This document shows, one piece after another, positions 2,890 to 20,262 of a DNA stretch of 44,519 nt (its first letter is position 1; every line of letters begins with the position of its first letter). This DNA comes from Coprothermobacterota bacterium. Its GTDB lineage: Bacteria; Caldisericota; JANLFM01. The notes under the pieces were generated by a model, which was not told the DNA's origin, searched no databases, and worked only from the letters and a program-made list of their open reading frames with translations. The stretch spans positions 1 to 44,519 of the forward strand of contig JAPLHW010000257.1 of assembly GCA_026389425.1 (NCBI GenBank), given 5' to 3'. Made by a program: the position numbers and the translations under genes.

Positions 2890-3843
2890 TTAGCATTTCG
2901 CAGTTGATGGATATTGGCCCGACAACTCCATGAAGCGGTCTGCGTATTCCGTGATCTTTTCCACCAGAGCCAACTTGGACCACCATTCCTTCGGAATCCC
3001 TCTTTCACCATAGTAGGCGCCTGCAATCTGCCCGAAGACAGCGCCGACCGTGTCTGCGTCATTCCCTAGATTCACGGCCAACAAAACTCCGTCGTGAAAA
3101 TCCAACGTCTGCTCAAATGCCCATAGGGCGGCTTCCAGCGTCTCCACCACATAGCCACTTGCCTTGATCTCGGGTGGTGCTTTCCTGCGGAATGAACCAG
3201 CAGCGATCTCAGCAATGGCCGGAGCAAGGGGTGTCCGCTGCCACAGGTCAAGGACGGGACAGAAACCGGGAGAAAGGATCACTTCTTTGGAACGGCTCTG
3301 AAGTGCGCCCACGATGAGGCCAGCAGCGTAGCGACAGGCATCCAGCGCGTCAACGGCACCGTGGGTGGTGCGAGAACTATCAGCGGCCATGGCGATGGCT
3401 TCCTCCGGCTTCTGTTCGAAAAACAGGGGTACCGGAGCCAGGCGCATCAGGGAGCCGTTGCCGGCCGAATGCAGGTCAGCCGATCCGCAAAATGGGTTCC
3501 CGCTTTCTCGGAACTGCGAAAGGGCTTCTTGTGTGGTGAGGCCAATGTCCACGCAGCGTCCGTTGCTTCCCAGGTATCCTTCCAGCATCCAGCGCAGGTA
3601 GCGCTCCATCTGGTCTTTGGGGTCAAACTCCTTACGCTCGATCAGGCTTTCAGCCAGGCACAGAGCCATCGAAGTGTCATCGGTCCACTCGCCCGCCTTC
3701 AACCGGAGCTGACCTCCACCGACCATGTCCTTAATCGGTTCAAAGCTTCCGGGATGCTGGAATTCCAATGTCGTGCCCAAGGCATCCCCCGTCGCCAGCC
3801 CCAGCAGACAACCGCGGAACCGTTCCCTCAAGTATATCTTCAT
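2890..3843 (-). CDS. ADP-ribosylglycohydrolase family protein
   Basis: Motifs GCLLGLATGDALG, EWTDDTSMAL and [23 protein letters not shown] place the start at ATG 3843 (MKIYLRERF), which forms an ATGA overlap with the stop of the upstream gene. The 45-aa Arg/Gly-rich N-terminal extension in the ORF track is probably not translated. Confidence 0.85.
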   Translation of the reverse strand: MKIYLRERFRGCLLGLATGDALGTTLEFQHPGSFEPIKDMVGGGQLRLKAGEWTDDTSMALCLAESLIERKEFDPKDQMERYLRWMLEGYLGSNGRCVDIGLTTQEALSQFRESGNPFCGSADLHSAGNGSLMRLAPVPLFFEQKPEEAIAMAADSSRTTHGAVDALDACRYAAGLIVGALQSRSKEVILSPGFCPVLDLWQRTPLAPAIAEIAAGSFRRKAPPEIKASGYVVETLEAALWAFEQTLDFHDGVLLAVNLGNDADTVGAVFGQIAGAYYGERGIPKEWWSKLALVEKITEYADRFMELSGQYPSTAKC

Positions 3844-4958
3844 GCTAGCTGGTGCCTTGCCGCCACCCCGGCTCCCCTTCTTGCCTGGCCAAGGGCGTCC
3901 GCCGCAAGCATGGCATCGAGGACTTTTCCGGGAGTGATCACGCCCGCTTCGTGATGGATGGGCTGACCGGGAGCGCACGCCTTTTCAGCAGCCTCCATTA
4001 GTTTTCGCTGGTCGGCGTTTCCAAGGCCGATGTCCGCAAGCGTGGTCGGCAAGCCGACCTCCTCGCAGAACGAGAAAACGGTTGCTGACTCGTCCGCTGA
4101 CGCGCCTGTCAGTTGGAGACCGGCCAAAACGCCAAAGGCGACTTTTTCGCCGTGGTAGAAGGAATGGGTTTCCGCCAACGCGGTGAGACCATTGTGAATG
4201 GAATGAGCCGCAGCCAACCCGGCGCTTTCAAACCCGATTCCGCTCAGCAGGATATTCGCTTCGACAATGCGTTCCAGAGCTGGCGTGACGATATTTCTCC
4301 GGCTGGCGAGTTTGGCGGCCGCGCCATAGGTCAGCAGGGTTTCATAGCAGAGTTTGGCGATGCCCAGCCCTACCGTTGTGCTATAACCGCCACACTCGTT
4401 CGCCGACTGGGTGCGCTCACAGGATCTGGCCTCGAACCATGTCGACAGCGCGTCTCCCATCCCGGCCACCAGGAACCGCGTCGGCGCTGCCGCGATGATC
4501 TCCACATCCACAAGCACAACCGCTGGGTTCGTTTTTTGATAGCATACGGAATCGAAAACCCCGTCCTTTGAGTACAGCACCGCGCACCCGCTGCACGGAG
4601 CATCGGTCGACGCGATCGTGGGGACGATGATCACCGGTATGCCCGAGCGGTCGGCGGCAATTTTCGCCGTGTCAATGGTCTTTCCTCCGCCCATGCCAAC
4701 AAGCACATCCACATGCTTTTGGGCGATGGTGGCGGACAACCGGGTTACCTCATCCTCGCAACACTCGCCGCGGAATAATTCGATGGGGATGGCCCGAGCG
4801 CTCCAATCGACACCGCATCCGGGAAGAACCTTGTCGTTCACCGAGTGCGACGCCAAGATCAACCCTTGTTTGCCCAGCAACTTTATCAGTGCGGGCAATT
4901 CGCCAATGGCGCCAACGCCTTGGATGTATTTTCCAGGAAAGACTGCTTTCTTAAACAC
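3840..4958 (-). CDS. gldA: glycerol dehydrogenase-like iron/zinc-dependent polyol dehydrogenase
   Basis: Motifs GGGKTIDTAKIAA, GDALSTWFEA, AAHSIHNGLT and HGEKVAFGVL match GldA metal/NAD motifs. Likely start is GTG 4958 (VFKKAVFPGKYIQG), 6 nt after GAGGAGG; the ORF-track start at 4982 is a TTG. Confidence 0.8.
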   Translation of the reverse strand: MFKKAVFPGKYIQGVGAIGELPALIKLLGKQGLILASHSVNDKVLPGCGVDWSARAIPIELFRGECCEDEVTRLSATIAQKHVDVLVGMGGGKTIDTAKIAADRSGIPVIIVPTIASTDAPCSGCAVLYSKDGVFDSVCYQKTNPAVVLVDVEIIAAAPTRFLVAGMGDALSTWFEARSCERTQSANECGGYSTTVGLGIAKLCYETLLTYGAAAKLASRRNIVTPALERIVEANILLSGIGFESAGLAAAHSIHNGLTALAETHSFYHGEKVAFGVLAGLQLTGASADESATVFSFCEEVGLPTTLADIGLGNADQRKLMEAAEKACAPGQPIHHEAGVITPGKVLDAMLAADALGQARRGAGVAARHQLA

Positions 4959-7158: not shown

Positions 7159-7512
7159 ATGAGAAACCAACGAACCTTCAGCATCGAGTTCAAGCGCCAA
7201 GTGATCGAGGAATGGCTCAGCGGAACCAGCAGCCTAGCCCAACTCTCCCGCCGCCATGCCATCGCCCCCAGCCTTCTCTATCACTGGAAGGAACGATACA
7301 TCCGAGGGAAGCTTTCCAATGAGCCTACCGAGTCAGGAGCTCTCCAAGCCCGCGTTGAGAAGTTGGAGAGGATGGTCGGCAGGCTGACCCTGGAGAATGA
7401 GTTCTTAAAAAAGGGGCTCTCCAGAGCCCTCTCCCCATCGAAGAGAAACGTCAGCTCATCGCTTCCTCCCGCCAACAACTCCCCGGTAAAACAGGGCAAG
7501 GATGCCGATTGA
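7159..7512 (+). CDS. IS3-family transposase OrfA (HTH)
   Basis: MRNQRTFSIEFKRQVIEEWL...LLYHWKERY plus leucine zipper LERMVGRLTLENEFLKK. Slippery TTAAAAAAG at about 7405. Confidence 0.8.
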   Translation: MRNQRTFSIEFKRQVIEEWLSGTSSLAQLSRRHAIAPSLLYHWKERYIRGKLSNEPTESGALQARVEKLERMVGRLTLENEFLKKGLSRALSPSKRNVSSSLPPANNSPVKQGKDAD

Positions 7513-8330
7513 TGAGCCTGGCCCGCAGCACCTTCTACGCCAAGAGCAAAGTGAATCTCCCACGACTCAAGGAGGATGCTGATCTACAGGACTCGATCGA
7601 GCGGATCGTCCTGGCTTATCCCTGATATGGCTATCGCCTGGTGACGCATCAGCTTTAAAGAGAAAGCTCCAGGGTCAATCGCAAATGGGTTCTGCGGGTC
7701 ATGAAAACTAGCGATCTGCTCTATCGAGCAGCGCGGCCTTGGCGGAGGACCATCAACAGTGACCACGTCTTTCCTATCTACGCCAACCTACTCCACAATG
7801 TCCTGGTCACTTCTCCCGACCAGACCTGGGTTTCTGACTTGACCTATATCCGTATCGAGACTGGTTTTGTTTACCTGGCAGTGATCCTCGATGCTTTCTC
7901 CCGAGTGGGGATTGGTTATACCCTCTCTACTCGCCGCTTAGATACCAGTCTAGCCAAGGCAGCGCTGGAAATGGCCCTCAGAGAACGGAAGCCAAAACCT
8001 GGCTGTATTCTTACCACTCGGATCAGGGGGTGCAATATGCCAGCGCCGACTATGTGCAAACCCTAAAAGATCATAGCTATAGGATCAGTATGTCCCACAA
8101 GGGCAATCCCTGTGACGACGCCTTGGTGGAGAGCTTCTTCGAGACCCTCAAGCAGGAAGAGTTTTACCTGACGGAATACCAACCGATTCATGACCTGCGA
8201 GACCGGCTTCCCCGTTTTATCGAGGAGGTCTACAATCGGAAAAGACTCCCTCTTCGCTGAGGAATTTACCACCGAGAGAGTTCGAATCTACCCGGAACCT
8301 GGAAGACAACGCTTGGCGGGAGGGGTGCAC
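7405..8330 (+). pseudogene. IS3-family transposase OrfB (DDE integrase core), disrupted
   Basis: Recognisable WVSDLTYIRIETGFVYLAVILDAFSR, HSDQGVQYAS and SMSHKGNPCDDALVESFFETLK. There are in-frame stops (AYP*YGYR at about 7622, QL*RE at about 7657) and at least two frameshifts (about 8030 and 8255). Confidence 0.8.
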
Positions 8331-8885: not shown

Positions 8886-8933
8886 ATGACCGGTAGGCGG
8901 ACTGGGCTGGGGAAAGAAAGCATCCGATCATGA
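8886..8933 (+). CDS. possible 15-codon upstream ORF (MTGRRTGLGKESIRS) coupled to the 630-aa gene
   Basis: ATG 8886 lies 5 nt after a strong SD (AAGGAG). Its TGA overlaps ATG 8930 as ATGA, while ATG 8930 has no good SD of its own. Confidence 0.25.
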   Translation: MTGRRTGLGKESIRS

Positions 8934-10822
8934 AACGATTGCCCATGTTAACCCTCGCTCTCACTAGCAGGGCTAAGGTTCAAAGGATTTATGCTCCCAC
9001 GCCATGGTGGCAGCATGGAAAGCCGATCGAAGACATGCAGTTGAATGAGGCCCTTGCGGTACTCCAGGCCGCAAGGTCGTGCGATATTTGCGCTATATCA
9101 ATAACAGGGGGCGATCCGTTCGCGGTTCCGGCTCTGTTGATGCCAATTCTTAAGGAGATCTCCCAGTCGACGACTGCATGGGTATCTGTTTCGATCCAAA
9201 CGTTCGGTGTATATGCTGTCACAGATCAGATATGGGAATATCTTTGTCAATGCGGCCCCGCCCTTACACTAGTTATTGAACTAGACACGATGGACTCGGC
9301 AACGTATAAGACGATTTACGGCAAGGACGCATTGAAATCGGTTCAAACATTCATTGATAATGCACGTATGCGAAACATCCACGTCAGGATCAGAACGGTC
9401 TTGACTTCCCTCAACAAAGATGCAATCACTCATATTGTCCAGTATGCGAAGGAAAAAGACTGTGACATGTTGCTCTGCGACCTCGCCACTATTATGGGAA
9501 AACGAGAACCGGTTGATTTGTTTATTCCCATCGCAACTGTCCAAGCGATAGTCACACAGAATCTCCAACCCGCAGGCTTCACGGCGAATCCCGGCGGGTT
9601 CGGCCTTCCGATCCAGATGTGGCATCTTTCGGGAAACAGATTACTTGGTCTACAGGCATCATCTTCTTCACCCCTGTATCATCCTGCATGTGCCATGTGT
9701 CAGCAGATGTGCGCAAACGGTGGTTACCCGCTCCTCATCCTGCCAGGCATGTATGTACACCTATGCAACTATAATAGCAACCATGTTGTCCCTCTAGGTG
9801 ACAATACGATCAAGAATCTCAGCCGCGTCCTCTCGGGTTTTTTAGGCCCATTTTCTACTGATACCACCTCAGAAGACAGACGCGGCGGCGGCATTCCGTC
9901 GGGTGCAACACTGCATGAACTGATCAGTCCCGTCGATCAAAACAACCAACAGCTGAAGTTCGCTGCTGATGCAATCGATCTCTCGATAGACAAAGAGTAC
10001 CGAGTGCTTAGTCCCTGGAGGCTTGGCCGGGGTATCGACGCATGGAATCTCACTCGTTGCTCCATCAGAACCCAGGATCGGATCTGGCCACTTCGAAAGA
10101 TGCCCTTATCCGGCATATGGGTTAAACCACACACAGTAGTTTACAGTGTCTCAAGAGAAACAATCACAGTCCCATCCGGGTATATCGGTTTGGTGCTCGG
10201 TCGAGCGACTTGGGCACGACTTGGTCTTCAGGTGTGTTGCGACGTAGCCAAGATTCAGTCTGGCCGAACAGGTCGCGTCCAGTTCCACCTAACGAACAAT
10301 AACAGAATGGCAATTCGTATACTTCCGTACATGTTCATCGCCCAGATCGTGTTCTTCCCGGTAACTGACGCTTATCCATTAAAAGGGGAACAGTACAACG
10401 AAGACGAAGGAGTTTACTCACCGGTGAAGGGACTCAATCTGCAACGCGAGATCGGTCCTTCCGTTCAATTTGGACGATTGATAGCAATCGAAAAAACCGG
10501 GAAAAAAAATATACTCCCTGCCCTGCTCCAAGGGGAGAACGGATCAGTAGATATTTTGAAATTGGCAGAAAGATTCGGATTGCTCAGGCACAGCAGTAGA
10601 ATGTCGGCAGCGAAAAAAAAGACATTGGCGAATCTGACCCGCGATTTAATTGGCCCAATAGTCGGTTTATTTGGCGGAATGGTAGTCTGGTTCCGAACAA
10701 ACCTCCTGTGGGCCGGTATCGTCGCATTTGTTATCATCACGGTGGTGCTTATAGTGGTTATAGTGATTTATTGGAAAACCTCAAACGTCCAAGACGACAA
10801 AGGTGACAAGAATGCTTCATGA
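8930..10822 (+). CDS. fusion protein: radical-SAM-like domain lacking the CxxxCxxC triad + dCTP-deaminase/dUTPase-fold domain + C-terminal transmembrane anchor
   Basis: Residues about 5-200 align by eye to MoaA-type radical SAM cores, but the cluster loop reads LTSRAKVQRIYAP instead of ITDxCNxRCxYCxP; also ISITGGDPF and VIELDTMDSATYKTIYGKD. Residues about 420-490 (VPSGYIGLVLGRATWARLGLQV...GRVQFHLTNNN...ILPYMFIAQIVFFPV) align to E. coli Dcd 99-163. The C-terminus LLWAGIVAFVIITVVLIVVIVIYW is a TM helix. Confidence 0.7.
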   Translation: MKRLPMLTLALTSRAKVQRIYAPTPWWQHGKPIEDMQLNEALAVLQAARSCDICAISITGGDPFAVPALLMPILKEISQSTTAWVSVSIQTFGVYAVTDQIWEYLCQCGPALTLVIELDTMDSATYKTIYGKDALKSVQTFIDNARMRNIHVRIRTVLTSLNKDAITHIVQYAKEKDCDMLLCDLATIMGKREPVDLFIPIATVQAIVTQNLQPAGFTANPGGFGLPIQMWHLSGNRLLGLQASSSSPLYHPACAMCQQMCANGGYPLLILPGMYVHLCNYNSNHVVPLGDNTIKNLSRVLSGFLGPFSTDTTSEDRRGGGIPSGATLHELISPVDQNNQQLKFAADAIDLSIDKEYRVLSPWRLGRGIDAWNLTRCSIRTQDRIWPLRKMPLSGIWVKPHTVVYSVSRETITVPSGYIGLVLGRATWARLGLQVCCDVAKIQSGRTGRVQFHLTNNNRMAIRILPYMFIAQIVFFPVTDAYPLKGEQYNEDEGVYSPVKGLNLQREIGPSVQFGRLIAIEKTGKKNILPALLQGENGSVDILKLAERFGLLRHSSRMSAAKKKTLANLTRDLIGPIVGLFGGMVVWFRTNLLWAGIVAFVIITVVLIVVIVIYWKTSNVQDDKGDKNAS

Positions 10823-11999
10823 CAGTCAACATCTTCACTCAGCGCAAATAGAATTGCATACTTCGCGCCAATATGGTTTGGAGGTGGATCCAAAATTCTC
10901 TGCGCACTTTGCTCATCTCAAGCAGGTGTTCCTTTATGTCACAGACAAGTGCGATCTTCGCTGCCATCACTGTCTCTACAAAGCGAGTCTGATACTCGAA
11001 CGTGAAATGGAGGCTGCCATCGCGGCTCGTCTGCTTGTAACATTTCGCTCAATGGGTGCCTTCAAGTTGACCTTCATCGGTGGTGAAGCCACTAGATATG
11101 GAATCGAATCTAGCCACAGACCTCTACTAGATCTCATACAACTCGCCCACGAGATAGGTTACAACTACATCCGGTTGGACACAAACGGCCATTTTCCTTC
11201 TAATCTTCTGGGAATGCCAGAGTTCCGCCTGCTGGATGAACTTTCTATTAGTATCGACGGCTACAACGCAGCGACCAACGATTCACTCCGCGGTGATGGC
11301 GCGTTTGAGATCACGGTTAACCAGCTACGCCAAGCTGTTAAGGCGGGCTACAGAGTCCATGTTACAGCGTGTGCCACAAGACAGAACGTCATCATCGCAG
11401 GCTCAGTGGCGAACTTTCTCGAACATATGATTCGTTTCTGTGAAGATGAGAAGATTGAGGCGGTCAATTTTCATGGTGTTTTTCGTATGGGGGTACCCAT
11501 GGATACATGGACTGAGGGAACGCATCTCGAACCCCAGGAATGGCTGCGGGGCTATGAGACTGTGGCAAAGAGAATCCAGGCCGGCATATACTCGATACCG
11601 GTACGTTTACCCAGGCACCTCATCGAGAGAGCCCTATTTGAAAGAGCACCCCAGAAATACGGCTACTGCCCATGTAAACTCGGCGAGAGAGTACTTGTGC
11701 ATCCAGATGGGATCATCCGCATTTGTTCCTCACTTCTATGCACACCCTATGGCGTCGCCCGTTACACACCGGAGCGGATTATTTGGGAGACTGTTACGAA
11801 CGAACTCTACCGCCACGACATGAATTCACATACTCCATGCACCAACCAACAAGCCATGTATACGCCCGAACTTGTGCCTCTGTGCTTCTCCTTCAAACCG
11901 GGGCAAACAGAACCGGTCTGGCGAGAACTTGCTCATGAAGGTGTCGTGTCAACCGGACTAGACCCCATTCCTCAACCCGTTTGCGACCAGAGAAAATAG
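10803..11999 (+). CDS. radical SAM enzyme with Cys-rich (SPASM/twitch-like) C-terminal domain
   Basis: Intact VTDKCDLRCHHC (CxxxCxxC), FIGGEA SAM-binding motif and IRLDTNGH. Seven C-terminal Cys (YGYCPCKLG...RICSSLLC...PCTN...LCFS...VCD). The ORF-track start is GTG 10803; ATG 10812 after AAAGGTGA is equally likely. Overlaps the upstream gene by 11-20 nt. Confidence 0.8.
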   Translation: MTRMLHDSQHLHSAQIELHTSRQYGLEVDPKFSAHFAHLKQVFLYVTDKCDLRCHHCLYKASLILEREMEAAIAARLLVTFRSMGAFKLTFIGGEATRYGIESSHRPLLDLIQLAHEIGYNYIRLDTNGHFPSNLLGMPEFRLLDELSISIDGYNAATNDSLRGDGAFEITVNQLRQAVKAGYRVHVTACATRQNVIIAGSVANFLEHMIRFCEDEKIEAVNFHGVFRMGVPMDTWTEGTHLEPQEWLRGYETVAKRIQAGIYSIPVRLPRHLIERALFERAPQKYGYCPCKLGERVLVHPDGIIRICSSLLCTPYGVARYTPERIIWETVTNELYRHDMNSHTPCTNQQAMYTPELVPLCFSFKPGQTEPVWRELAHEGVVSTGLDPIPQPVCDQRK

Positions 12000-12020
12000 A
12001 TCCATGCCGACAGGCATCTG

Positions 12021-12962
12021 ATGATTGGTTCTAATGTCTCTACCGTTGGTGGGATCGATAAGGGTTTCATACAGGCCAAAGAATGGGGCTTAGAGTGCAT
12101 TCAGATATACATAACCCCCTCTCGCACTTGGACAGTCCCCAAACGTGATGCAAAGTCTATTCATAACTTCCTCCAAGCTTGGCAAGAAAGCGGCGGCGTC
12201 GCGGTCGTGGGTCACGTGCCCTTCCTCGTCAACCTTGGATCGCCGAACCCTGTGTTGTTCCACAAGTCCGTCGACAGATTGGTCTGTGAGATCAACAGCG
12301 CGGAAGAACTCCGGATTCGTAACATCATAATGCACCCCGGAGCATGTGGCGGGAGACCCATCGAACAGGCTCTGGATCAGGTTATAGTCGGGCTGAACGA
12401 GGCAATCAGCAGGACCAAATGTTCATCGACGAACATTCTTCTAGAAACGATGGCAGGACAAGGAAGAACCCTCGGCGCTACCTTTGAGCAATTTGCCTAC
12501 ATAACTGAGCACATCGAAGACGGAGAACGCATCGGCGTGTGTTGCGACACATGCCACCTTTATGCATCTGGATACGACATCAGAGGGAGAACCGGTTTCT
12601 CAAAGGTAATGCATGAAATTGGGAACGTACTCGGGATGACAAAGATCAAGGCATTTCACCTCAATGATTCCAAACACCCCCTCGGGTCCCACAAAGACAA
12701 ACACTGCACAATTGGTAAGGGATTCCTCGGCATTGAGGTCTTTCAGGCCATAGTCCAGTCAGAGGCGTTGAGTGTCCTTCCCATGGTGATTGAGAACCCT
12801 GATAGGGATTGCGGTAGCTACAACGACGTTACGCTCTTGAAGGAACTCCGGGAGTCGAGAGACCGCGTTAAAGACCCAGAACCTACCGAGAGAACAAGTT
12901 TACAGACAGAACTCCTGTTAGATGATGCGTGCCGCTTTCGCCGGCGCTTACCGCGCTCATAG
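12021..12962 (+). CDS. nfo: endonuclease IV (AP endonuclease, Nfo family)
   Basis: Aligns by eye with E. coli Nfo with all metal-ligand positions present: GHVPFLVNL, IMHPG, LETMAGQG, CCDTCH, FHLND, DKH, VIEN. Lies 21 nt after the radical SAM gene. Confidence 0.85.
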   Translation: MIGSNVSTVGGIDKGFIQAKEWGLECIQIYITPSRTWTVPKRDAKSIHNFLQAWQESGGVAVVGHVPFLVNLGSPNPVLFHKSVDRLVCEINSAEELRIRNIIMHPGACGGRPIEQALDQVIVGLNEAISRTKCSSTNILLETMAGQGRTLGATFEQFAYITEHIEDGERIGVCCDTCHLYASGYDIRGRTGFSKVMHEIGNVLGMTKIKAFHLNDSKHPLGSHKDKHCTIGKGFLGIEVFQAIVQSEALSVLPMVIENPDRDCGSYNDVTLLKELRESRDRVKDPEPTERTSLQTELLLDDACRFRRRLPRS

Positions 12963-13014: not shown

Positions 13015-13887
13015 CTACAAGAAAAGATTTGTCTGTTCTGGTTCATCCCACGGGGAACGAAATCCCCAACCCTCAAACAAGTCGGTCAGTTGCCTCAGAT
13101 CGGGAGTGCGTAATTTCAGTCCATCCAAGTCCAGTTGCAGGTTCAGATTGGTCCGAAGTGCAATCAAGAAACGATTCGTTCGCAATTGATCGAAACTGGC
13201 TTGTATGGCATCCCGCAGTTTCGGTCGTGGGATCACGCTTGCCTTCGCTAGAAGATTCTCGATGTCACCAAATTCCCGGAGTAATGCGGCTGCCGTCTTC
13301 TCACCGACTCCAGACACACCTGGAATGTTGTCAACCATGTCGCCAACCAAACTGAGCAAATCAACCATCTGTGCAGGCGGCACGCCGTAACGCTCAGAGA
13401 CGGCACTGACATCAAGCGCCACATTCCCTTTGCGCTCGGAACGAACCCAACGAATTTGAGGGCCAACGAGTTGGGCGAAATCCTTATCATTACTCGCGAT
13501 ATAGACTCTTGCGCCACGCTTGGCACCTTGGAAGGCCAAGGTCGCGACAACATCGTCAGCCTCTTCTCCTTGTCGCTCCACTATGGGAAAACGCAGTGCC
13601 TCCAGGAACTCTCGAATCTTAGGCAACTGTGCCAACATCTCCACTGGAGCAGGGGGTCGGTCCGCTTTGTAACAAGGAAAAGCAGCCAACCGTTGAACGG
13701 GTGGACCATGGTCAAACACTGCCGCTCCGTGCGTAGGTTGAAACTCAATTAACCATTTACGCACCATCCGGGTGAACCCATAGACAGCATTCACCGGTTC
13801 TCCACTCGGACTAGAGAGTGTCGGCAGGGCGAAGTAAGCTCGATATGTCTGATGATTCGCATCGATCAATAGTAAGGTTTTTTCCAT
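13015..13887 (-). CDS. 5'-3' exonuclease / flap endonuclease (Pol I N-terminal-domain-like, stand-alone)
   Basis: LLLIDANHQTYRAYFA, GEPVNAVYGF, EADDVVATL, IASNDKDFAQLV and the H3TH motif LVGDMVDNIPGVSGVGEKTAAALL. Start is ATG 13887 (MEKTLLLID) or 13905. Confidence 0.85.
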   Translation of the reverse strand: MEKTLLLIDANHQTYRAYFALPTLSSPSGEPVNAVYGFTRMVRKWLIEFQPTHGAAVFDHGPPVQRLAAFPCYKADRPPAPVEMLAQLPKIREFLEALRFPIVERQGEEADDVVATLAFQGAKRGARVYIASNDKDFAQLVGPQIRWVRSERKGNVALDVSAVSERYGVPPAQMVDLLSLVGDMVDNIPGVSGVGEKTAAALLREFGDIENLLAKASVIPRPKLRDAIQASFDQLRTNRFLIALRTNLNLQLDLDGLKLRTPDLRQLTDLFEGWGFRSPWDEPEQTNLFL

Positions 13888-14247
13888 GAGTGTGTAGACT
13901 ATCATACGACGTGTGGGTGGACAACAGATTTATAGATGCACCGGTAGGGTAGGCAACACATTTGTCAATAAGTGATTATTGTAAAGGTCAACACCTTCAC
14001 GAGCTCTGTTTCTGGTCTTGTGTTCATTTTTCGAGGCGTAGAACAGTGTGCAAGCGGTAAGACGTGGATCATCGAGGTGAATAAGACATAGTTTGAGGTA
14101 ACTTCTCCGATTCACGATCGCGTCGGTAATAGCATTCATTTTCCCATTTTCAATAATGGATATGGTCTGAATACACTTCCTCACGGATCTTGCCGGTAGC
14201 CGTGCATAATGCCTTGTTTCTTTAATAGATTTCTACCCCAAAAGGAT

Positions 14248-14327: not shown

Positions 14328-17300
14328 CTATGCCGCTGCGTAGACGCTACGGCCGGCGCCGTAGTAGGCGTCATAGACGTGTTGAAAGATAGCGGTGGTC
14401 TTTTGCTTGAACAATTCCGACGTGTAGGCTCTCGGCAAGCCCTGGTCCAGCATTTTCTCGATGGTTACCCGCACCTCGGCGCGGGCTTGCTGGCGTTTGC
14501 GCCAATCCAACACCAGTTTCCCCGCTTTAAGCGTGGCCAATAGCTTTCGGGCCGTGGCCTTCACCTTTTCCCGGTCCATCTCGCTCATCTCAATCTGTGG
14601 CTTGGTCAAGAGGTCAAAGAGCGCCAGCTCTTCTTCGTTTAATTGTTCGCCCACGCCCCGCTTCTCTTCTTCATTCAGGCTCTGGGCGAAGGCCGTCAGT
14701 TGCTGGAAGAACTCCTCAGCGTTGAGGCTGCCTGCGTTGTAAGCGTCGATCATCGCCTGGAAGCGCTCCAGGTAATCCATGCGAGTACGGTTGAGCCGCA
14801 CCATGGTCATCAGCTTCTGCGCCACTGCGCCCTTCAGTCTTTCGTTGAACGTGCGCTTGTGGCCTGTCTTGAATTTCTCGGCCAGCTTCTCGAAGTCAAT
14901 TTTGCTCAGGTCAATCCACCGCTCGTCGCTGTAGGGTACGCCCGCCTCCCGGATGATGTATCCTTCCGTGGCGATGGAGCGATCGAGTAGCTCTTCCGCC
15001 TGCTGCATGACCTGAGAGATGTCCACCGGGGGCGTGAGGGCGCGGATTTTGTCAGCGATTACCAGCAAGAGCTTTACCTCAGCAGCGAAAGACTGGGCGT
15101 CCGAGTCGGGCAGTACAGCTTGGTAGAGCCGCTGCACAGTATTGGCCTGATCAAGATAGCGGCGTTTGATCTCCTCGGACCCCACCAATGCCTCCACGGC
15201 GTCATCGAGCAGCCCGACGCGCATAAATCCATTAGCGGTCTGGATAGCTGTAAGTTTCACCCCTTGTTCCCGACACATGCCCCGTGTTTCTTCCAACGCC
15301 TGCCGCAACGCCGCCACTAATGCGGACTTATCTTCCACCGGCTTGTTGCCGCCGCCGCCCGCGCCATAGATGGCCAGCGCCCGTTCCAGGTTGCGGAACA
15401 CCCCGGCATAGTCCACGATCAGGCCGCTCACCTTGCCGGGATAGACCCGGTTAGCTCGGGCGATGGTCTGCATCAATGTGTGGTTGCGCATCGGCTTGTC
15501 GAGGTAAAGGGTGGAACAGCTCGGCACATCGAAGCCGGTCATCCACATGGCGCAGACAAACACCAGCCGGAAGGGGTCGTCCGGGTCCTTGAACTTCGTC
15601 TCCAGGTCTTCCTCCACCATGCGCTTGCGGTGCGGGCGAATATCCAACCCCTTCTTTTTCATCTCGTCGATTTCGTTCTGGCCCTGAGAAACCACCACCG
15701 CCATATCGGCCTCTTTCATCCGGGCGATGCGCTCTTCAAGCTCTCGCCGGATATCGCCGACGACACCAGCACGTTCCAGCTGTGAGGTCGCGATCTTGGC
15801 CCTCCAGTGCTTCTTCACCTTGTCGTACATGCGGATGGCCGTGGCCTTGTCGATGCACACCACCATGGCCTTGCCCTGAAAACCTCGCCCGGTGAAATGC
15901 TCCACCAGGTCTTTGGTCACCGCCTCCAACCGCTCATCGCGCGTGATCAGGTGGTACTCGCGGGCGAACTCCCGCTCCAACCTCGTTTCCTGTGCCTCGT
16001 CCAGTTCCGCCTCTTCCAGCAGGCGCTCCATGTCCTGGTTGAGGTTCTCGTTGACCAGTTGCAGTTCCGGGATGCGATTCTCGTAGTAGAGCGGCACCGT
16101 GGCGCCGTCGACAACCGATTGCTGGAAATCGTAGACGCTGGTGTAGTCGCCGAAGACCTGGCGGGTCTTCTCCTCGCCCACGATCAGAGGTGTACCGGTA
16201 AAAGCCAGAAAAGCGGCGTTGGGCAGAGCCGTGCGCATGTTCAGCGCCAGGGTGTCGTACTGGCTGCGATGGGCCTCGTCAGTGATAACGATGATGTCCC
16301 GCCGCTCGGAGAGCACCGGGTGCACCTCGCCCTGCTCGGTGCGGAACTTGTGGATCAGGGTGAAAACATAGCGGTGATCCTCCCTGAGCAACTGGCGCAA
16401 GTGCCTGCTGCTTTCCGCCTGGGTGTGACCTTCGGTTACCACTCCCGCTGATGCGAAGTGCTTGTAGATCTGCCCGTCCAGCTCCTGCCGGTCGGTGATC
16501 ACCACAAAGGTCCAGTTTCCTGGCACTTTGCGCAGCACCTTCTGGGCGAAGAACATCATGGAGACACTCTTCCCGCTGCCTTGAGTATGCCAGAACACCC
16601 CCAGCTTACCCTCCCGCTGGCGGATGTCGGCCAGGGCCTCCAGCGCGTTATTGACGCCCAGGTACTGGTGATTCTTGGCCATCAGCTTGATCAGTCCTCC
16701 GGGCGCTTCCTGGAACAGGGTGAAGTTCTCCACCAGGTCCAACAACCGCTTCGGTTCGCAGACGCGCAACATGGTCTGCAGTGAGACCCGGCCTGTTTCG
16801 TCCTCGCTGTCTACCTTCTTCCACTCGGCGAAGTGTTCCCATCCCGCAGTGATGCTGCCCATCCGGCTCTGGCTGCCGTTGGAGACGATGACCAAGGCGT
16901 TGGGCCAGAAAAGCTGGGGCACGGTGTCCTTGTAGTCGCGTATATTGCCGGTGAAAGCGGTCTCCAGGTGGCGGTGGGCAGCCTTCAGTTCGATCAGGAC
17001 AAGGGGTAGGCCGTTGACGAATCCCACCAAGTCGGCACGGCGGGTGTGCATCTCACCGGTGACCCAGAACTGCGAGCAGAATAGAAAGTCGTTGTTGGCC
17101 GGGTGATCCCAATCGATCACCCGCACCACCTCCACCGTCTCCTCATCCCCTTCGGGATCGGGAATGGATACGCGCACGCCGTTCTTCATCAGGTGGTAGA
17201 CCTCACGATTGGCGGCCGCTGCACTCATGCGCGAGCGGTCGCGGATCAGCTCCTCGATGGCCTGGCGAATCGCATCAGACGGGGTATCCGGGTTCAGCCG

Positions 17301-17480
17301 CTGCAGAGCCGGACGAAGGCGGGCGGTGAGGATCACCTCAGCCTTGGTCTCACGGCCCAGCGCGCTGGCGCCGTGGTCGAACTCGTGATAGGCGTTGAGC
17401 GTCTCCCAGCCCAGCTCTGCCAGCAAAGCGATGGCCGGTTGCTCGATCAAGGCGTCTTCGCTGTAGCTGCTGGGAGTCAT
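14328..17480 (-). CDS. hsdR: Type I restriction enzyme, R subunit
   Basis: 1050 aa. N-terminus SEDALIEQPAIALLAELGWE, Walker A TQGSGKS, DEAH box ITDEAHRSQ, motif VI QTIARANR. Confidence 0.95.
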   Translation of the reverse strand: MTPSSYSEDALIEQPAIALLAELGWETLNAYHEFDHGASALGRETKAEVILTARLRPALQRLNPDTPSDAIRQAIEELIRDRSRMSAAAANREVYHLMKNGVRVSIPDPEGDEETVEVVRVIDWDHPANNDFLFCSQFWVTGEMHTRRADLVGFVNGLPLVLIELKAAHRHLETAFTGNIRDYKDTVPQLFWPNALVIVSNGSQSRMGSITAGWEHFAEWKKVDSEDETGRVSLQTMLRVCEPKRLLDLVENFTLFQEAPGGLIKLMAKNHQYLGVNNALEALADIRQREGKLGVFWHTQGSGKSVSMMFFAQKVLRKVPGNWTFVVITDRQELDGQIYKHFASAGVVTEGHTQAESSRHLRQLLREDHRYVFTLIHKFRTEQGEVHPVLSERRDIIVITDEAHRSQYDTLALNMRTALPNAAFLAFTGTPLIVGEEKTRQVFGDYTSVYDFQQSVVDGATVPLYYENRIPELQLVNENLNQDMERLLEEAELDEAQETRLEREFAREYHLITRDERLEAVTKDLVEHFTGRGFQGKAMVVCIDKATAIRMYDKVKKHWRAKIATSQLERAGVVGDIRRELEERIARMKEADMAVVVSQGQNEIDEMKKKGLDIRPHRKRMVEEDLETKFKDPDDPFRLVFVCAMWMTGFDVPSCSTLYLDKPMRNHTLMQTIARANRVYPGKVSGLIVDYAGVFRNLERALAIYGAGGGGNKPVEDKSALVAALRQALEETRGMCREQGVKLTAIQTANGFMRVGLLDDAVEALVGSEEIKRRYLDQANTVQRLYQAVLPDSDAQSFAAEVKLLLVIADKIRALTPPVDISQVMQQAEELLDRSIATEGYIIREAGVPYSDERWIDLSKIDFEKLAEKFKTGHKRTFNERLKGAVAQKLMTMVRLNRTRMDYLERFQAMIDAYNAGSLNAEEFFQQLTAFAQSLNEEEKRGVGEQLNEEELALFDLLTKPQIEMSEMDREKVKATARKLLATLKAGKLVLDWRKRQQARAEVRVTIEKMLDQGLPRAYTSELFKQKTTAIFQHVYDAYYGAGRSVYAAA

Positions 17481-18217
17481 ACTTGCGGCTCCTTTCCGCT
17501 CTTGTTAAGGACTGCACGACCAGCCGGGGTGGTGCGGTATCGCTGCTCCGGGCTGCGAGGCTTATCGGGGAAGGTCATTTCGACAAGGCCCATCTCTAGG
17601 GCTGGTTTGAGGTAGCGCTCTTCGAAATTTGCTCTTCCTTTTAACTCCAACGCCGCCTGGATCTCCACGCGCGTCATCTCTCTCGACATGATTTCCAGCA
17701 TCTTCAAGACCTCGACAGTAACTTGCCCTGCGACTTGCCCTGCGACTTGTGGGGTACTTGGGGGGTACATGTGCGGCACATGTGCGGTGGATTCCAGCGT
17801 CTCATGAGCCTTTTCATGGGCTTGAACTTGGTGCTGACTTGGTGCCAATTTGGTGCCAATTTGTGCGGTCTTCGGTTCCTCTAGGGCTCCCGCCTGCGCC
17901 CGCACCTCCGGATTCGGATGGAAGATCGCAGTGAAAAAGCCGTTTTCCTCGAAGATCGGCGCCGGACAGCGTTGCTCGCGCGCCTCCTCGCGCATGCGCT
18001 TGATCCCGGTTCCGGCCTTCTCGATGAAAGTGATGCGGTGGAGCAGGTCAGCAATAAGGGCATTGCGGCGGATGCTCTTCCGGCCGAGGTCGGAAAACTT
18101 CATCCCCTTGGGCAGGCCGCCGGGGCTGGATATCTCGATCCTATCTGTGTAGATCTCAACAAAAACATTGGCGCCTTCACCCTCCTGGAGCAGGATGTCG
18201 AGATCAGTAGCTTTCAT
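17477..18217 (-). CDS. HATPase_c_4 / winged-helix regulator-like protein (the family often mis-named RecG-like), apparently shortened
   Basis: IEISSPGGLPKGMKFSDLGRKSIRRNALIADLLHRITFIEKAGTGIKRMREE plus a C-terminal wHTH-like region. Strong SD AAGGAGG before ATG 18217 and an ATGA-type 4-nt overlap with the hsdR start. Lacks the N-terminal AlbA_2 domain expected in full-length relatives. Confidence 0.65.
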   Translation of the reverse strand: MKATDLDILLQEGEGANVFVEIYTDRIEISSPGGLPKGMKFSDLGRKSIRRNALIADLLHRITFIEKAGTGIKRMREEAREQRCPAPIFEENGFFTAIFHPNPEVRAQAGALEEPKTAQIGTKLAPSQHQVQAHEKAHETLESTAHVPHMYPPSTPQVAGQVAGQVTVEVLKMLEIMSREMTRVEIQAALELKGRANFEERYLKPALEMGLVEMTFPDKPRSPEQRYRTTPAGRAVLNKSGKEPQV

Positions 18218-18317
18218 ACTTCGGCCTCCTTGGGAGTATTCAAGCCTACTCGCCCTCGATACTGGAAAGCCAAGCGAAATGTCTGCGAGCTTCGTTCATT
18301 CCACTTCCGCCGCTCCT

Positions 18318-18341
18318 GGGATCGCCGCACCCCAGTGCGGC
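18318..18341 (+). repeat. REP-like element, copy 2 (GGGATCGCCGCACCCCAGTGCGGC)
   Basis: One mismatch to consensus; 35 nt downstream of the RAYT stop. Confidence 0.7.
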
Positions 18342-18375
18342 ATCCTCATTTGGATTTCTTCTCATCCTTTCCATT

Positions 18376-19038
18376 TTAATCTTTCGCACTACTCCACAGC
18401 CAATCCTCTGGTTTTGTTACCAACCCGGCTTTCACGGGGTTCATGACAATGTATTCTCGCGTTGCCATAAAGTGACCTTCGTCTCGGATGAAACGATCCC
18501 AGTACTCCCGATGCCAAATCCGGGACCGCCGCACCCCAGTGCGGCTCATATTCTCATTGATCCACCGCGCCGTATAGTTCTTCCACGACAATACGATCTT
18601 CCCCAAAGGGATACCCTCGCGCGGTTCAATCATTACATGACAATGGTTAGGCATCACAACCCACTGCAACAGGCGGTAACGCTCCCCGTCAAACCGAAGC
18701 CACGTATCTACCACACAAGCGGCGACATCAGGTTTTCGTAAAACGCAGGAACCATGACCTGCATCCAAAAAGGCCTCGATCTTCCGTCGCAGTTGCGTCT
18801 CGCGCGCATCGCGATTCCGGACTTCTTCCTTCAATTCTGCTTGCATTTGTTCCAATGCCGATTGTGGTAGTGAATCAGCCAGACGGTAGGTGATGTGTTG
18901 GATAGCATGTGCTGTATCGAAGTGGGGCAAATAGCCGCGGGAGTACCACCCTCGGGCTGGTTGCTCCCCAGAACGGTAGGCTTCCGTCTGTTCACTGCTG
19001 TTGCCGCACTGGGGTGCGGCGGTCCCAGGGACGGTCAT
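18376..19038 (-). CDS. REP-associated tyrosine transposase (RAYT, IS200/IS605-like Y1 HUH enzyme)
   Basis: SRGYLPHFD, HUH motif MPNHCHVMI, catalytic Tyr region TREYIVMNPVKAGLV. Flanked by inverted REP copies at 18318 and 19003. ATG 19038 overlaps the hsdS stop (ATGA). Confidence 0.85.
   Translation of the reverse strand: MTVPGTAAPQCGNSSEQTEAYRSGEQPARGWYSRGYLPHFDTAHAIQHITYRLADSLPQSALEQMQAELKEEVRNRDARETQLRRKIEAFLDAGHGSCVLRKPDVAACVVDTWLRFDGERYRLLQWVVMPNHCHVMIEPREGIPLGKIVLSWKNYTARWINENMSRTGVRRSRIWHREYWDRFIRDEGHFMATREYIVMNPVKAGLVTKPEDWLWSSAKD
18522..18545 (+). repeat. REP-like element, copy 3, inside the RAYT coding sequence
   Basis: Exact 24-nt consensus; translated on the minus strand as ...SRTGVRRSRI... 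Confidence 0.7.
19003..19026 (-). repeat. REP-like element, copy 4, encoding the RAYT N-terminus
   Basis: GCCGCACTGGGGTGCGGCGGTCCC is the reverse complement of the consensus. It encodes residues GTAAPQCG of MTVPGTAAPQCGNSS. Confidence 0.7.
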
Positions 19039-20216: not shown

Positions 20217-20262
20217 TTCCCCTCCAGCAGCTTCACCACATTCTCGGCGATCTGTTCTTCCC
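20213..20262 (-). repeat. duplicate of the last ~50 nt of hsdM, fused to the YhcG-like ORF
   Basis: Aligns at about 80% identity with 21346..21395. It encodes ...EQIAENVVKLLEGK versus the HsdM C-terminus ...[14 protein letters not shown]. Confidence 0.7.

Follow-up and report, generated by a model that had tools for sequence, protein, structure and literature searches.

The locus reported here is compared with viperin and other radical SAM enzymes, defensive dCTP deaminases, signalling defence systems and pyrimidine hypermodification pathways. Defensive dCTP deaminases known so far have the zinc cytidine-deaminase fold and not the Dcd fold, signalling defence systems typically swap their effectors, and pyrimidine hypermodification toolkits include ThyA-like, Dcd-fold, dNMP kinase and NUDIX-type enzymes. 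Here we analyse three adjacent genes, ORF1 to ORF3, within a 44,519-nucleotide stretch of DNA from a Coprothermobacterota bacterium (the window). The module is described in none of the curated families, PADLOC models or papers searched, in agreement with the original prediction that it is undescribed. Its link to nucleotide and DNA chemistry, in a defence and mobile-element context, is supported by the observations below, and the module is most likely horizontally acquired and anti-phage.

Layout and conservation of the three-gene module

The three genes are co-directional and tightly spaced, as had been claimed (Table 1). ORF1 and ORF2 overlap by 20 nt if ORF2 begins at GTG, or by 11 nt if it begins at the alternative ATG at 10812 (395 aa), and a gap of 21 nt separates ORF2 from ORF3. 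Significant homologues exist for each of the three products, which shows that the genes are real and that the ORFs did not arise by chance. Position 8886, originally given as the start, does not begin ORF1 but a short ORF upstream of it, 15 codons long and in a different frame, whose own ATG stands at 8886 and whose TGA overlaps the ORF1 ATG. The operon lies in a block of low GC content (0.48-0.515 across 8-14 kb versus 0.53-0.60 on both flanks), with IS630-family and IS3-family transposase fragments upstream and a Type I R-M locus (hsdR, hsdS, hsdM) downstream, which bears out the setting first described. A stand-alone 5'-3' exonuclease gene is located 52 nt downstream of the operon and is convergent with it.

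Table 1. Coordinates of the three genes and of the ORF1 domains in the window.
Feature	Position	Strand	Product	Evidence
ORF1	8930..10822	+	630 aa
ORF1 residues 1-307, pseudo-radical-SAM (MoaA-like) domain	8930..9850	+		NCBIfam, alignment, Foldseek
ORF1 residues 321-500, Dcd/dUTPase-fold domain without Dcd catalytic residues	9890..10429	+		Pfam, TIGR02274, alignment, Foldseek
ORF1 residues 571-616, C-terminal hydrophobic segment	10640..10777	+		Kyte-Doolittle
ORF2	10803..11999	+	398 aa from GTG
ORF3	12021..12962	+	313 aa

ORF1-ORF2-ORF3 is a rare, conserved, transcription-unit-like module. The order Dcd-fold protein with a transmembrane (TM) anchor, radical SAM enzyme, endonuclease IV (Nfo) is shared by the window and loci L010, L082, L083 and L084, and two loci cut by contig ends (L001 and L087) match it as far as their sequence reaches. 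A lack of co-conservation of the trio had been named beforehand as a refuting outcome, and it is contradicted by the recurrence of this order on another five or six divergent contigs from metagenomes. Identity to the window proteins is 33-37% for ORF1, 56-60% for ORF2 and 45-55% for ORF3, the host GC content of these loci spans 0.34-0.51, and a neighbour-joining tree groups their ORF2 homologues in a single clade.

Domains of the three proteins

ORF1 is a membrane-anchored fusion of two catalytically disabled nucleotide-enzyme domains. The N-terminal domain scores 43.6 bits with the NCBIfam MoaA model, far under its cut-off, and ORF1 reaches 18.9 bits with Radical_SAM, under the gathering score. 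It lacks CxxxCxxC: four family sequences extend far enough to cover the motif (window ORF1, P0002, P0123 and P0126), and in each of them alignment places SxxxVxRxY where active relatives have CNxxCxYC. The domain still has its GGDP SAM motif as well as four cysteines towards its C terminus (C254, C257, C261 and C279), three of them invariant in the family alignment and the fourth retained at a close-by position. Foldseek matched the ORF1 model to MoaA across about 320 columns (TMt 0.58) and to Dcd and Dcd-Dut proteins (TMt 0.55-0.65); the predicted structure is of low confidence overall (pLDDT 57) and reaches about 80 in the MoaA-like domain.

Pfam DCD matches ORF1 at residues 331-476 (E=1.8e-13), and TIGR02274 gives 53 bits, short of its 92.8-bit cut-off. 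By alignment with E. coli Dcd (1XS1), S111, D128 and E138 correspond to A426, Q443 and H453; six family members have likewise lost these residues, and every relative has Q or A in place of the Glu. A role for ORF1 as a dCTP deaminase was rejected on these grounds, the catalytic Ser, Asp and Glu being missing throughout the family. In a 19-residue Kyte-Doolittle window (maximum 3.45) ORF1 has one clear TM helix at about 592-615 with a weaker helix before it, and a hydrophobic C-terminal stretch was seen in every homologue sequence inspected. The proposed fusion of a Cys-less radical SAM core, a Dcd fold and a TM anchor is confirmed, with the correction that the Dcd-fold part is not a deaminase. 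The full architecture is represented by only three clusters, including that of the window protein, among 1.84 billion representative proteins. ORF1 homologues lie upstream of the ORF2 homologue in L001, L082 and L084, and L010 and L083 carry a Dcd-fold protein with a TM segment and no Cys-less domain. That domain is thus optional, and an active/inactive radical SAM pair, as first proposed, is not the core.

ORF2 looks like a catalytically competent radical SAM enzyme with one conserved four-Cys auxiliary site. The predicted triad is intact, C50, C54 and C57 being present in CDLRCHHC (Radical_SAM, E=3.3e-10), and CxxxCxxC and five further cysteines are invariant or nearly so across 40 homologues. 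The tail does contain the seven cysteines that had suggested an auxiliary cluster, but only C289, C308, C346 and C361 (together with C190) are conserved in the family, and no SPASM domain was detected in ORF2 by domain search. The AlphaFold2 model (pLDDT 91.6) gave SkfB, SuiB, CteB, BlsE, viperin, anSME and MoaA as its top Foldseek matches, all at TMq ≤ 0.54, with DesII also among the matches. Every curated-family score of ORF2 is far under its cut-off.

ORF3 is an endonuclease IV. It scores 261 bits with TIGR00587 (cut-off 129.65) and matches Nfo chains in the PDB with E-values down to 4e-49. His, Glu or Asp occupies all nine positions (H65, H105, E142, D176, H179, H213, D226, H228 and E258) that align to the metal ligands of E. 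coli Nfo, as had been foreseen, and these are conserved in all radical SAM-linked Nfo homologues that cover them.

Partner genes across the wider ORF2 family

In the wider family the core is an ORF2-family radical SAM enzyme with an AP endonuclease, either exonuclease III (Xth) or Nfo. A co-directional AP endonuclease was found within 5 kb at 46 of 90 loci (Xth at 31, Nfo at 15), and Xth and Nfo together at none of the 90. That two unrelated folds sharing one activity fill this place points to a requirement for AP-endonuclease activity. The EEP-fold partners are genuine exodeoxyribonuclease III: four of the six tested score 231-292 bits (cut-off 99), and those of L030 and L009 fall under it at 74 and 93 bits. 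Among non-LysR loci with full flanks 25 of 38 have an AP endonuclease and about a third do not, and none of the 17 LysR-type loci, which come mostly from Clostridia MAGs, carries one.

Besides the AP endonuclease, loci of the family carry dTMP kinase (143 bits, also matching the PADLOC viperin-associated kinase VakA), Dcd-fold proteins occurring singly or as a tandem of three, thymidylate synthase, NUDIX and CYTH, and these partners converge on deoxypyrimidine metabolism. Effector-like proteins are also present and are exchanged between loci. The effector-like slot, held in the window by the Dcd-fold protein with its TM segment, contains a PNP_UDP_1 protein or an alpha/beta hydrolase in U281-type operons, the former matching the PADLOC CBASS 'PN-superfamily' effector (77 bits). 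Defence genes adjoin several loci: Type I R-M near L006 and L034, Type IIG near L069 and SIR2-HerA near L031, with pAgo and PDC candidates present among the flanks of 23 loci; as a count without matched background, this is only suggestive. No ORF2-family module was found in phages.

Explanations and comparison with known systems

We favour, with a probability of roughly 0.4, a viperin-like system in which a deoxypyrimidine nucleotide is altered. ORF2 would be the catalyst, probably directing SAM radical chemistry at a pyrimidine deoxynucleotide (dUTP/dTTP/dCTP class), and the analogue so produced would block or damage DNA synthesis. Nfo would handle DNA ends or lesions as the obligatory DNA-side partner, through its AP-endonuclease or 3'-repair-diesterase activity, either keeping the ends of host DNA extendable by stripping 3'-blocking residues or cleaving DNA that contains incorporated analogue. 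ORF1, non-enzymatic for both parent families, would be the membrane component; its most likely role is to bind the substrate or product nucleotide and to regulate, localise or carry out the response, and it is probably a trimer like other Dcd-fold proteins, ligand binding and trimerisation both being assumptions given the low-confidence model.

This anti-phage reading is favoured because the trio is conserved, ORF2 looks competent, an AP endonuclease recurs beside deoxypyrimidine partners, the effector-like slot is swapped, and the family occurs in a defence and mobile context and was not found in phages. An analogue-making enzyme with Nfo cleaning 3' ends is the best available reading, a modification or repair cassette being the alternative. 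Against the favoured reading, the structure search gives ORF2 a generic radical SAM likeness only, and part of the family loci lack an AP endonuclease. Moreover, phage DNA shares the cytoplasm with the host ends and would be unblocked by Nfo as well, so that self-protection logic alone is not compelling.

Among the rivals, signal-and-effector abortive infection survives best, though we consider it unlikely. Here ORF2 would make a small nucleotide-derived signal, which the pseudoenzyme domains of ORF1 would bind before its C-terminal helices damage the membrane, and Nfo (Xth elsewhere) would act as sensor or trigger, reporting abnormal DNA ends or lesions on infection. The retention in ORF1 of two nucleotide-enzyme folds, other motifs and the TM tail after loss of the catalytic residues is consistent with a receptor-effector, as are the CBASS-like PNP protein and the hydrolase in its slot, such swapping being typical of signalling defence. 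However, many family loci have no effector-like gene and only kinase, NUDIX, CYTH or Dcd-fold partners, we know of no signalling system with an AP endonuclease as sensor, and PNP_UDP_1 could instead be an MTAN-like 5'-deoxyadenosine nucleosidase serving the radical SAM enzyme.

Comparably unlikely is a housekeeping-type repair or nucleotide-pool operon, in which ORF2 would sanitise damaged nucleotides or, in the manner of spore photoproduct lyase, use radical chemistry to repair DNA lesions, Nfo would complete the repair, and the neighbouring nucleotide enzymes would be ordinary DNA-precursor genes. Base-excision-repair partners (Nfo, Xth and the PADLOC OGG-type gene directly upstream in L010), MutT-like NUDIX proteins, dTMP kinase and the convergent exonuclease of the window argue for it. 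Family members also occur in tiny Patescibacteria and DPANN genomes, where the adjoining dTMP kinase and Nfo could be housekeeping genes, which also counts against an analogue-making system. Yet the exonuclease and OGG are not conserved across other loci, the distribution is patchy and rare, the window operon has low GC and IS flanks, and R-M, SIR2-HerA or pAgo genes are neighbours. Moreover, it is not obvious what a membrane-anchored double pseudoenzyme or exchanged effector-like proteins would do in repair, and L041 has two dTMP kinase copies, one of them therefore extra.

It is distinctly improbable that ORF2 and the nucleotide enzymes place an unusual pyrimidine in host DNA or the dNTP pool as an epigenetic mark, with Nfo processing intermediates or unmodified foreign DNA. 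The ThyA-like, Dcd-fold, dNMP kinase and NUDIX set does resemble hypermodification toolkits, and R-M loci adjoin in several genomes, but the module has no conserved glycosylase/transferase or DNA-binding modification enzyme, the window trio has neither kinase nor ThyA-like gene, and no copies were found in phages, the usual home of such pathways. A small nucleoside natural-product pathway, with radical SAM tailoring as by BlsE or DesII plus self-resistance functions, is very improbable: both enzymes are structural matches of ORF2 and the partners act on nucleotides, but the structural similarity is of a generic kind (TMq about 0.5), the set of three genes includes nothing for glycosyl transfer, export or further tailoring, and AP endonucleases are not known as resistance genes for such products. 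The least credible explanation is that the genes form a maturase cassette for a RiPP or a cofactor, whose precursor peptide would have escaped recognition. In its favour, the top matches to ORF2 in NCBIfam and Foldseek include sactipeptide and SPASM maturases, and a 15-codon ORF precedes ORF1. Against it, maturase scores are far under cut-off (e.g. 55.8 versus 625 bits), no SPASM domain is detected, the sequence of the upstream peptide shows no conservation, the conserved partners work on nucleotides and DNA, and there is no conserved peptidase, transporter or RiPP recognition element, only one weak PqqD-like match near L007.

Compared with known systems, the ORF2 model resembles viperin, MoaA and the twitch/SPASM enzymes at the generic level of radical SAM similarity, and PADLOC pVip matches ORF2 with E=1.6e-11. 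No PADLOC model of the defensive dCTP deaminase type matches ORF1, and the precedent originally drawn from those enzymes does not hold as homology: they have the zinc cytidine-deaminase fold and ORF1 the Dcd fold, so the relationship is one of analogy.

Layout and conservation of the three-gene module

The three genes form a module that is real, conserved and very rare. ORF1, which encodes a fusion of a MoaA-like domain, a Dcd-fold domain and a transmembrane segment, overlaps the radical SAM gene ORF2 by 11-20 nt, and 21 nt separate ORF2 from ORF3, the endonuclease IV (Nfo) gene. The ORFs and their spacing are thus as the original prediction described them. The start coordinate given there, 8886, is not the start of ORF1 but the ATG of a 15-codon ORF upstream, in another frame. 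A perfect AAGGAG stands 5 nt ahead of the ATG of this short ORF, whose TGA overlaps the ATG of ORF1 (ATGA). A 13-codon ORF likewise ends in ATGA at the start of the fusion gene in the fetched locus L001, with a peptide unrelated to that of the window. An upstream ORF with such an overlap is absent in locus L010, and none was found 5' of the corresponding gene in L083.

Coordinates of features in the window (contig JAPLHW010000257.1) and in fetched loci carrying ORF2-family genes
Locus	Feature	Coordinates	Strand	Remarks
Window	ORF1	8930-10822	+	630 aa
Window	ORF2	10803-11999	+	398 aa from GTG; 395 aa from ATG at 10812
Window	ORF3	12021-12962	+	313 aa
Window	15-codon upstream ORF	8886-8933	+	peptide MTGRRTGLGKESIRS
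Window	ADP-ribosylglycohydrolase	2890-3978	-	Pfam 265.7 bits
Window	5'-3' exonuclease/FEN, Pol I N-terminal-like	13015-13905	-	296 aa
Window	Type I R-M locus	14328-22947	-	hsdR, hsdS, hsdM
Window	HATPase_c_4/Fic-like_C protein	17477-18217	-	extra gene in R-M locus
Window	IS200-like Y1 transposase-domain protein	18376-19038	-	extra gene in R-M locus
Window	YhcG/DUF1016 PDDEXK nuclease	20213-21346	-	extra gene in R-M locus
Window	Protein with signal-like N-terminus	29821-31578	-	585 aa
L001	13-codon upstream ORF	735-776
L002	U281	9139-9984
L010	OGG-type gene	564-1154		196 aa
L049	Tandem Dcd-fold paralogues (two or three)	9751-11238
L055	Tandem Dcd-fold paralogues (two or three)	9228-11437
L064	Single Dcd	7448-7984
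L079	Tandem Dcd-fold paralogues (two or three)	9749-11241

The proposed low-GC block between IS remnants and a Type I R-M locus was borne out. GC is 0.48-0.515 over 8-14 kb of the window, compared with 0.53-0.60 around it; fragments of IS630-family and IS3-family transposases lie upstream of the trio, and downstream come a convergent, stand-alone 5'-3' exonuclease gene and then the R-M locus. No riboswitch or other RNA was detected upstream of the trio at gathering score when the whole window was searched with Rfam, and a promoter and terminator scan gave signals no higher than shuffled expectation. The best named relative of the NadB of the window host is from a Caldiserica MAG, at most 56% identical.

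Several neighbouring genes were recorded alongside. The 5'-3' exonuclease gene begins 52 nt past the ORF3 stop, convergent with the operon and within the same low-GC block; it was rejected as a part of the system, as it adjoins the module in no other fetched locus. Three extra genes lie between or beside hsdR, hsdS and hsdM. Farther away, the 585-aa protein carries two ~150-aa domain copies, a TM segment, two CxxC...CxxC motifs resembling zinc ribbons, and long linkers rich in Pro, Thr and Ser. The ADP-ribosylglycohydrolase gene is ~1.7 kb from the IS630-family fragment, and it and the trio may belong to one mobile or defence-rich region.

The original prediction was to fall if the three genes were not co-conserved; they recur in order in unrelated genomes. 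A word-indexed search gave a single homologue of ORF1. Exhaustive searching by HMMER across 1.84 billion representative proteins brought only three representative clusters with the full architecture, that of the window protein among them; two further Dcd-fold+TM proteins lacked the N-terminal domain, and one more match was a fragment. The trio is present in order in the window and in L010, L082, L083 and L084, the ORF1-like gene of L082 and L084 being cut at the contig start. Contig ends truncate it in L001 (ORF1-like gene, radical SAM gene, contig end) and L087 (radical SAM gene, then Nfo, with the 5' end cut). In L010 and L083 the first gene encodes a Dcd-fold+TM protein that lacks the N-terminal domain, which is therefore dispensable. 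Identities to the window proteins are 33-37% for ORF1, 56-60% for ORF2 and 45-55% for ORF3, at a GC of 0.34-0.51, and in a neighbour-joining tree the ORF2 homologues of the trio loci fall into a single clade. In L010 the module is preceded by a gene that scores 128.7 bits with the PADLOC OGG model and has no Pfam match. OGG is an ancillary gene of type IV CBASS; the gene was rejected as a component because it is absent from the other loci.

Anatomy of the three proteins

ORF2 belongs to the radical SAM superfamily (PF04055, 40.8 bits against a gathering score of 29.5). Its CDLRCHHC triad (C50/C54/C57), noted in the original prediction as intact, is invariant in 40 homologues; C190, C289, C308, C346 and C361 are also conserved. 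The predicted seven-cysteine, auxiliary-cluster-like tail stood in part: the tail is Cys-rich, but only four of its cysteines are conserved and they do not form a SPASM motif, nor was a SPASM domain (PF13186) matched in ORF2 at E <= 0.1. From the sequence, a single auxiliary cluster of twitch type is possible.

Every curated NCBIfam model scores ORF2 far under its cut-off. Accordingly, ORF2 was rejected as a viperin or pVip (NF038283, 38.9 bits against 180) and as a MoaA (TIGR02666, 43.8 bits against 284), and the PADLOC pVip model reaches 42 bits over the core barrel only. The AlphaFold2 model of ORF2 (pLDDT 91.6) was matched by Foldseek to SkfB, SuiB, CteB, BlsE, viperin, anSME and MoaA, a generic likeness with TMq <= 0.54 (0.45-0.50 for viperin).

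Residues 1-307 of ORF1 are MoaA-like by profile, MoaA (GTP 3',8-cyclase) being their best profile match, and by fold over the full length, and all three radical SAM cluster cysteines are missing. The CNxxCxYC of active relatives is replaced by SxxxVxRxY in all four family sequences that reach the motif. In the alignment the domain keeps a GGDP/GGEP SAM motif and three invariant C-terminal cysteines, with a fourth retained nearby. These lie at the place of the substrate-binding auxiliary cluster of MoaA. Unlike MoaA, the domain forms one protein with a Dcd-fold domain and a TM tail. No molybdenum-cofactor genes lie near ORF1, and the domain was rejected as a MoaA (TIGR02666, 43.6 bits against 284; cluster cysteines absent in every member). 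A PDB sequence search with this domain alone gave no match. ORF1 and ORF2 show no significant similarity, and a recent duplication of ORF2 was therefore rejected as the origin of this domain.

Residues 321-500 of ORF1 adopt the beta-barrel Dcd fold shared by Dcd and the bifunctional Dcd-dUTPases, with sequence likeness to residues 81-165 of E. coli Dcd. Here the original prediction held for the fold. Assignment as a deaminase was judged by the catalytic Ser111, Arg115 and Glu138 (E. coli numbering) and an equivalog score over cut-off. E. coli S111/R115/D128/E138 align to A426/R430/Q443/H453; in all other relatives (5-6 aligned) the Glu138 position is Gln or Ala, and the Asp128 position is always Gln. 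The score was 53 bits against 92.8 (TIGR02274), and the domain was rejected as a dCTP deaminase. It was likewise rejected as a trimeric dUTPase, for which the motif III catalytic Asp (GxIDxxYxG) was used: the aligned position is Gln in all members (KIQSGR), and dUTPase models score 15-21 bits against cut-offs > 100. With the catalytic residues lost, the domain is therefore no canonical dCTP deaminase or dUTPase, and it further differs from these enzymes in being membrane-anchored.

Towards its C-terminus, at ~592-615, ORF1 has a strongly hydrophobic helix, and all homologues examined carry a hydrophobic stretch at this end. Both the Cys-less radical SAM core and the membrane anchor of the original prediction are thus present. 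The structure model of ORF1 (pLDDT 57) is too low in confidence for detailed reading. ORF1 offers a clear case of two enzyme folds taken up as probable ligand-binding modules.

ORF3 is an endonuclease IV (TIGR00587, 261.1 bits against a cut-off of 129.65; E down to 4e-49 with Nfo chains in the PDB). Aligned to E. coli Nfo, whose trinuclear site has nine metal ligands, it shows the expected residue at all nine positions (H65, H105, E142, D176, H179, H213, D226, H228 and E258), in agreement with the prediction of a complete metal site. It differs from the Nfo of base excision repair in sharing an operon with a radical SAM gene, in an extra 45-residue C-terminal tail past the Nfo core, and in a Phe where E. 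coli Nfo has Tyr72. Moreover, Asn takes the place of E. coli Nfo His7 (GSNVS in place of GAHVS) in 9/9 Nfo proteins linked to radical SAM genes: ORF3 (residue 5, window 12021-12035) and those of L010, L031, L039, L041, L069 and L082-L084. Judged from sequence, this Asn may mark a dedicated Nfo subclade.

The wider ORF2 family

The module sits within a broad, unnamed radical SAM family whose hallmark is an AP-endonuclease partner. More than 340 homologues of ORF2, at 45-60% identity, are spread over Proteobacteria, Clostridia, Bacteroidota, Acidobacteria, Planctomycetes, Chloroflexota, Patescibacteria, Asgard, DPANN and Bathyarchaeota. We fetched 106 loci from genomes and metagenomes, applied our own ORF calling, clustering and profiles, and compared the partner families with Pfam, NCBIfam and PADLOC. 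An AP endonuclease gene lies co-directionally within 5 kb in 46 of the 90 loci with a full-length enzyme (exonuclease III, Xth, in 31 and Nfo in 15, never both), and in 25/38 full-flank loci outside the LysR-type clade, which comprises mostly Clostridia MAGs. Four of six EEP-fold partners tested are Xth at 231-292 bits against a cut-off of 99, the two divergent ones falling below it. The common operon with the 281-aa protein U281 exists in two forms, rSAM-U281-PNP-Xth and Nfo-rSAM-U281-PNP. Because two unrelated folds with the same activity replace each other, there is strong evidence that AP-endonuclease/3'-diesterase activity is part of the ORF2-family system.

The remaining partners include a dTMP kinase that also matches the PADLOC viperin-associated kinase model, thymidylate synthase, NUDIX and CYTH proteins, U281, and Dcd-fold proteins, which occur singly or as three tandem paralogues and mostly lack Glu138. 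Only one of the tandem paralogues retains a counterpart of Glu138, and the position of Asp128 holds D, H or Q; their sequences suggest heterotrimers in which most subunits are not deaminases. L064 has one Dcd, with Gln in place of Glu138, yet it scores 111 bits on the Dcd equivalog model. U281 occurs in L002 and 11 other loci (alignment A9), in the common operon rSAM-U281-(PNP or hydrolase)-Xth. It has no Pfam family, a conserved motif C-I-H-I-T-G-x-x-R-A-L-A-D-P-F-H-R-x-x-C and a weakly winged-helix-like C-terminus (PDB 3b73, E=0.009). BLASTP and profile-profile comparison ruled it out as a diverged ORF1 domain.

Several gut Clostridia MAGs (among L068 and L070-L077) have the ORF2-family gene broken into two or three ORFs, in a LysR + CYTH-like + rSAM arrangement near genes for a serine recombinase and a cytosine methyltransferase. 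Pseudogenes, recoding or assembly errors may account for this.

Several loci have known defence genes within 8 kb: Type I R-M in the window, in L006/L015 and in L034, Type IIG in L069 and SIR2-HerA in L031, with pAgo and PDC candidates elsewhere among the flanks of 23 loci. These neighbours, counted without a matched background, are no more than suggestive. A phage origin was rejected, since neither a pattern search of IMG/VR nor a tblastn search of INPHARED found relatives; plasmids yielded only distant radical SAM proteins and no close family member.

Proposed role and relation to known systems

ORF2 lies in the structural neighbourhood of viperin and MoaA, its constant companion is a DNA-end or AP-site nuclease, and the family partners converge on dUMP, dTMP, dUTP, dTTP and dCTP. 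In the reading we prefer, at a probability of roughly 0.4, ORF2 would turn a deoxypyrimidine nucleotide into an analogue that disturbs DNA synthesis, as part of an anti-phage system. Nfo or Xth would handle the consequences in DNA, either by stripping 3' blocks for host protection or by cutting substituted DNA. ORF1, which keeps the SAM motif, the auxiliary-cluster cysteines, the Dcd fold and the membrane anchor, would be a binding, regulatory or effector subunit with no catalysis of its own. While the gene anatomy and the associations are direct observations, we infer the substrate, the product, the direction of the Nfo role and the anti-phage function.

A bolder reading is doubtful. It would make ORF2 the first radical SAM family with an immune output at DNA, not RNA: either a 3'-blocked or base-damaged deoxypyrimidine triphosphate, or hydrogen abstraction from DNA sugars leading to oxidised abasic lesions. 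Nfo and Xth would then be an interchangeable executioner or antidote, and ORF1, with its cluster-less MoaA-like domain and catalytically dead Dcd-fold domain as a pair of pseudoenzymes, a new kind of ligand-gated membrane component.

Other explanations were weighed. One slot of the family operons is variable and holds an alpha/beta hydrolase or an N-extended PNP_UDP_1 protein, the latter matching the 'PN-superfamily' effector of CBASS in PADLOC (77 bits); a scheme of signal and membrane effector, with ORF1 as the membrane protein, is nevertheless improbable. An operon for repair or pool sanitation is about as improbable. A DNA modification system appears quite unlikely, and a pathway to a nucleoside natural product very unlikely. 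A RiPP or cofactor cassette can be dismissed almost entirely: ORF2 was rejected as a SPASM/twitch peptide maturase (best maturase model StsB, 55.8 bits against 625; no SPASM domain).

Nucleotide-analogue immunity is so far known from viperins, which terminate RNA chains. Were the module a defence system, such immunity would extend to DNA synthesis, and there would be a functional reason for an immune operon to have its own AP endonuclease. A new radical SAM nucleotide product could serve as a polymerase inhibitor. Because the ORF2 family carries no curated name, a single biochemical assignment would annotate many genomes.

PADLOC-DB v2 has no model for the module, with only weak pVip matches for ORF1 and ORF2 and none for ORF3 or the 5'-3' exonuclease. 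The original prediction knew of no described system combining these parts; our literature search, covering part of the journals, also found neither a radical SAM + AP endonuclease module nor a Cys-less rSAM-Dcd-TM fusion. Its appeal to defensive dCTP deaminases as a precedent for ORF1 is reduced to analogy. AvcD and its relatives are zinc enzymes of the cytidine-deaminase fold with a kinase-like domain, not Dcd-fold proteins; PADLOC models of these deaminases do not match ORF1 at E <= 0.1, and the only conceptual link is defence via the deoxypyrimidine pool.

Among described systems, pVips with their kinases and Ophion come closest in concept. Like pVips, the family has one radical SAM enzyme from the structural neighbourhood of viperin and MoaA, nucleotide kinase partners and a defence-island context. 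Unlike pVips, ORF2 has a distinct Cys-rich C-terminal domain and the family partners point to deoxynucleotides, not ribonucleotides; an AP endonuclease partner is not a known feature of pVips. Ophion comprises a radical SAM protein (OpnA), a PHP phosphoesterase (OpnB) and a PRTase (OpnC), with HMM score thresholds of 500/350/450 bits, respectively; reported in Gammaproteobacteria and validated against jumbo phages, it is proposed by its authors to act through modified nucleotides (bioRxiv 10.1101/2025.09.30.679545). The module encodes neither a PHP nor a PRTase protein, Nfo and the Dcd-fold+TM protein standing in their stead. Both nonetheless consist of three genes, of which one encodes a radical SAM enzyme related to viperin yet distinct from it, one a phosphoesterase and one a protein of nucleotide metabolism.
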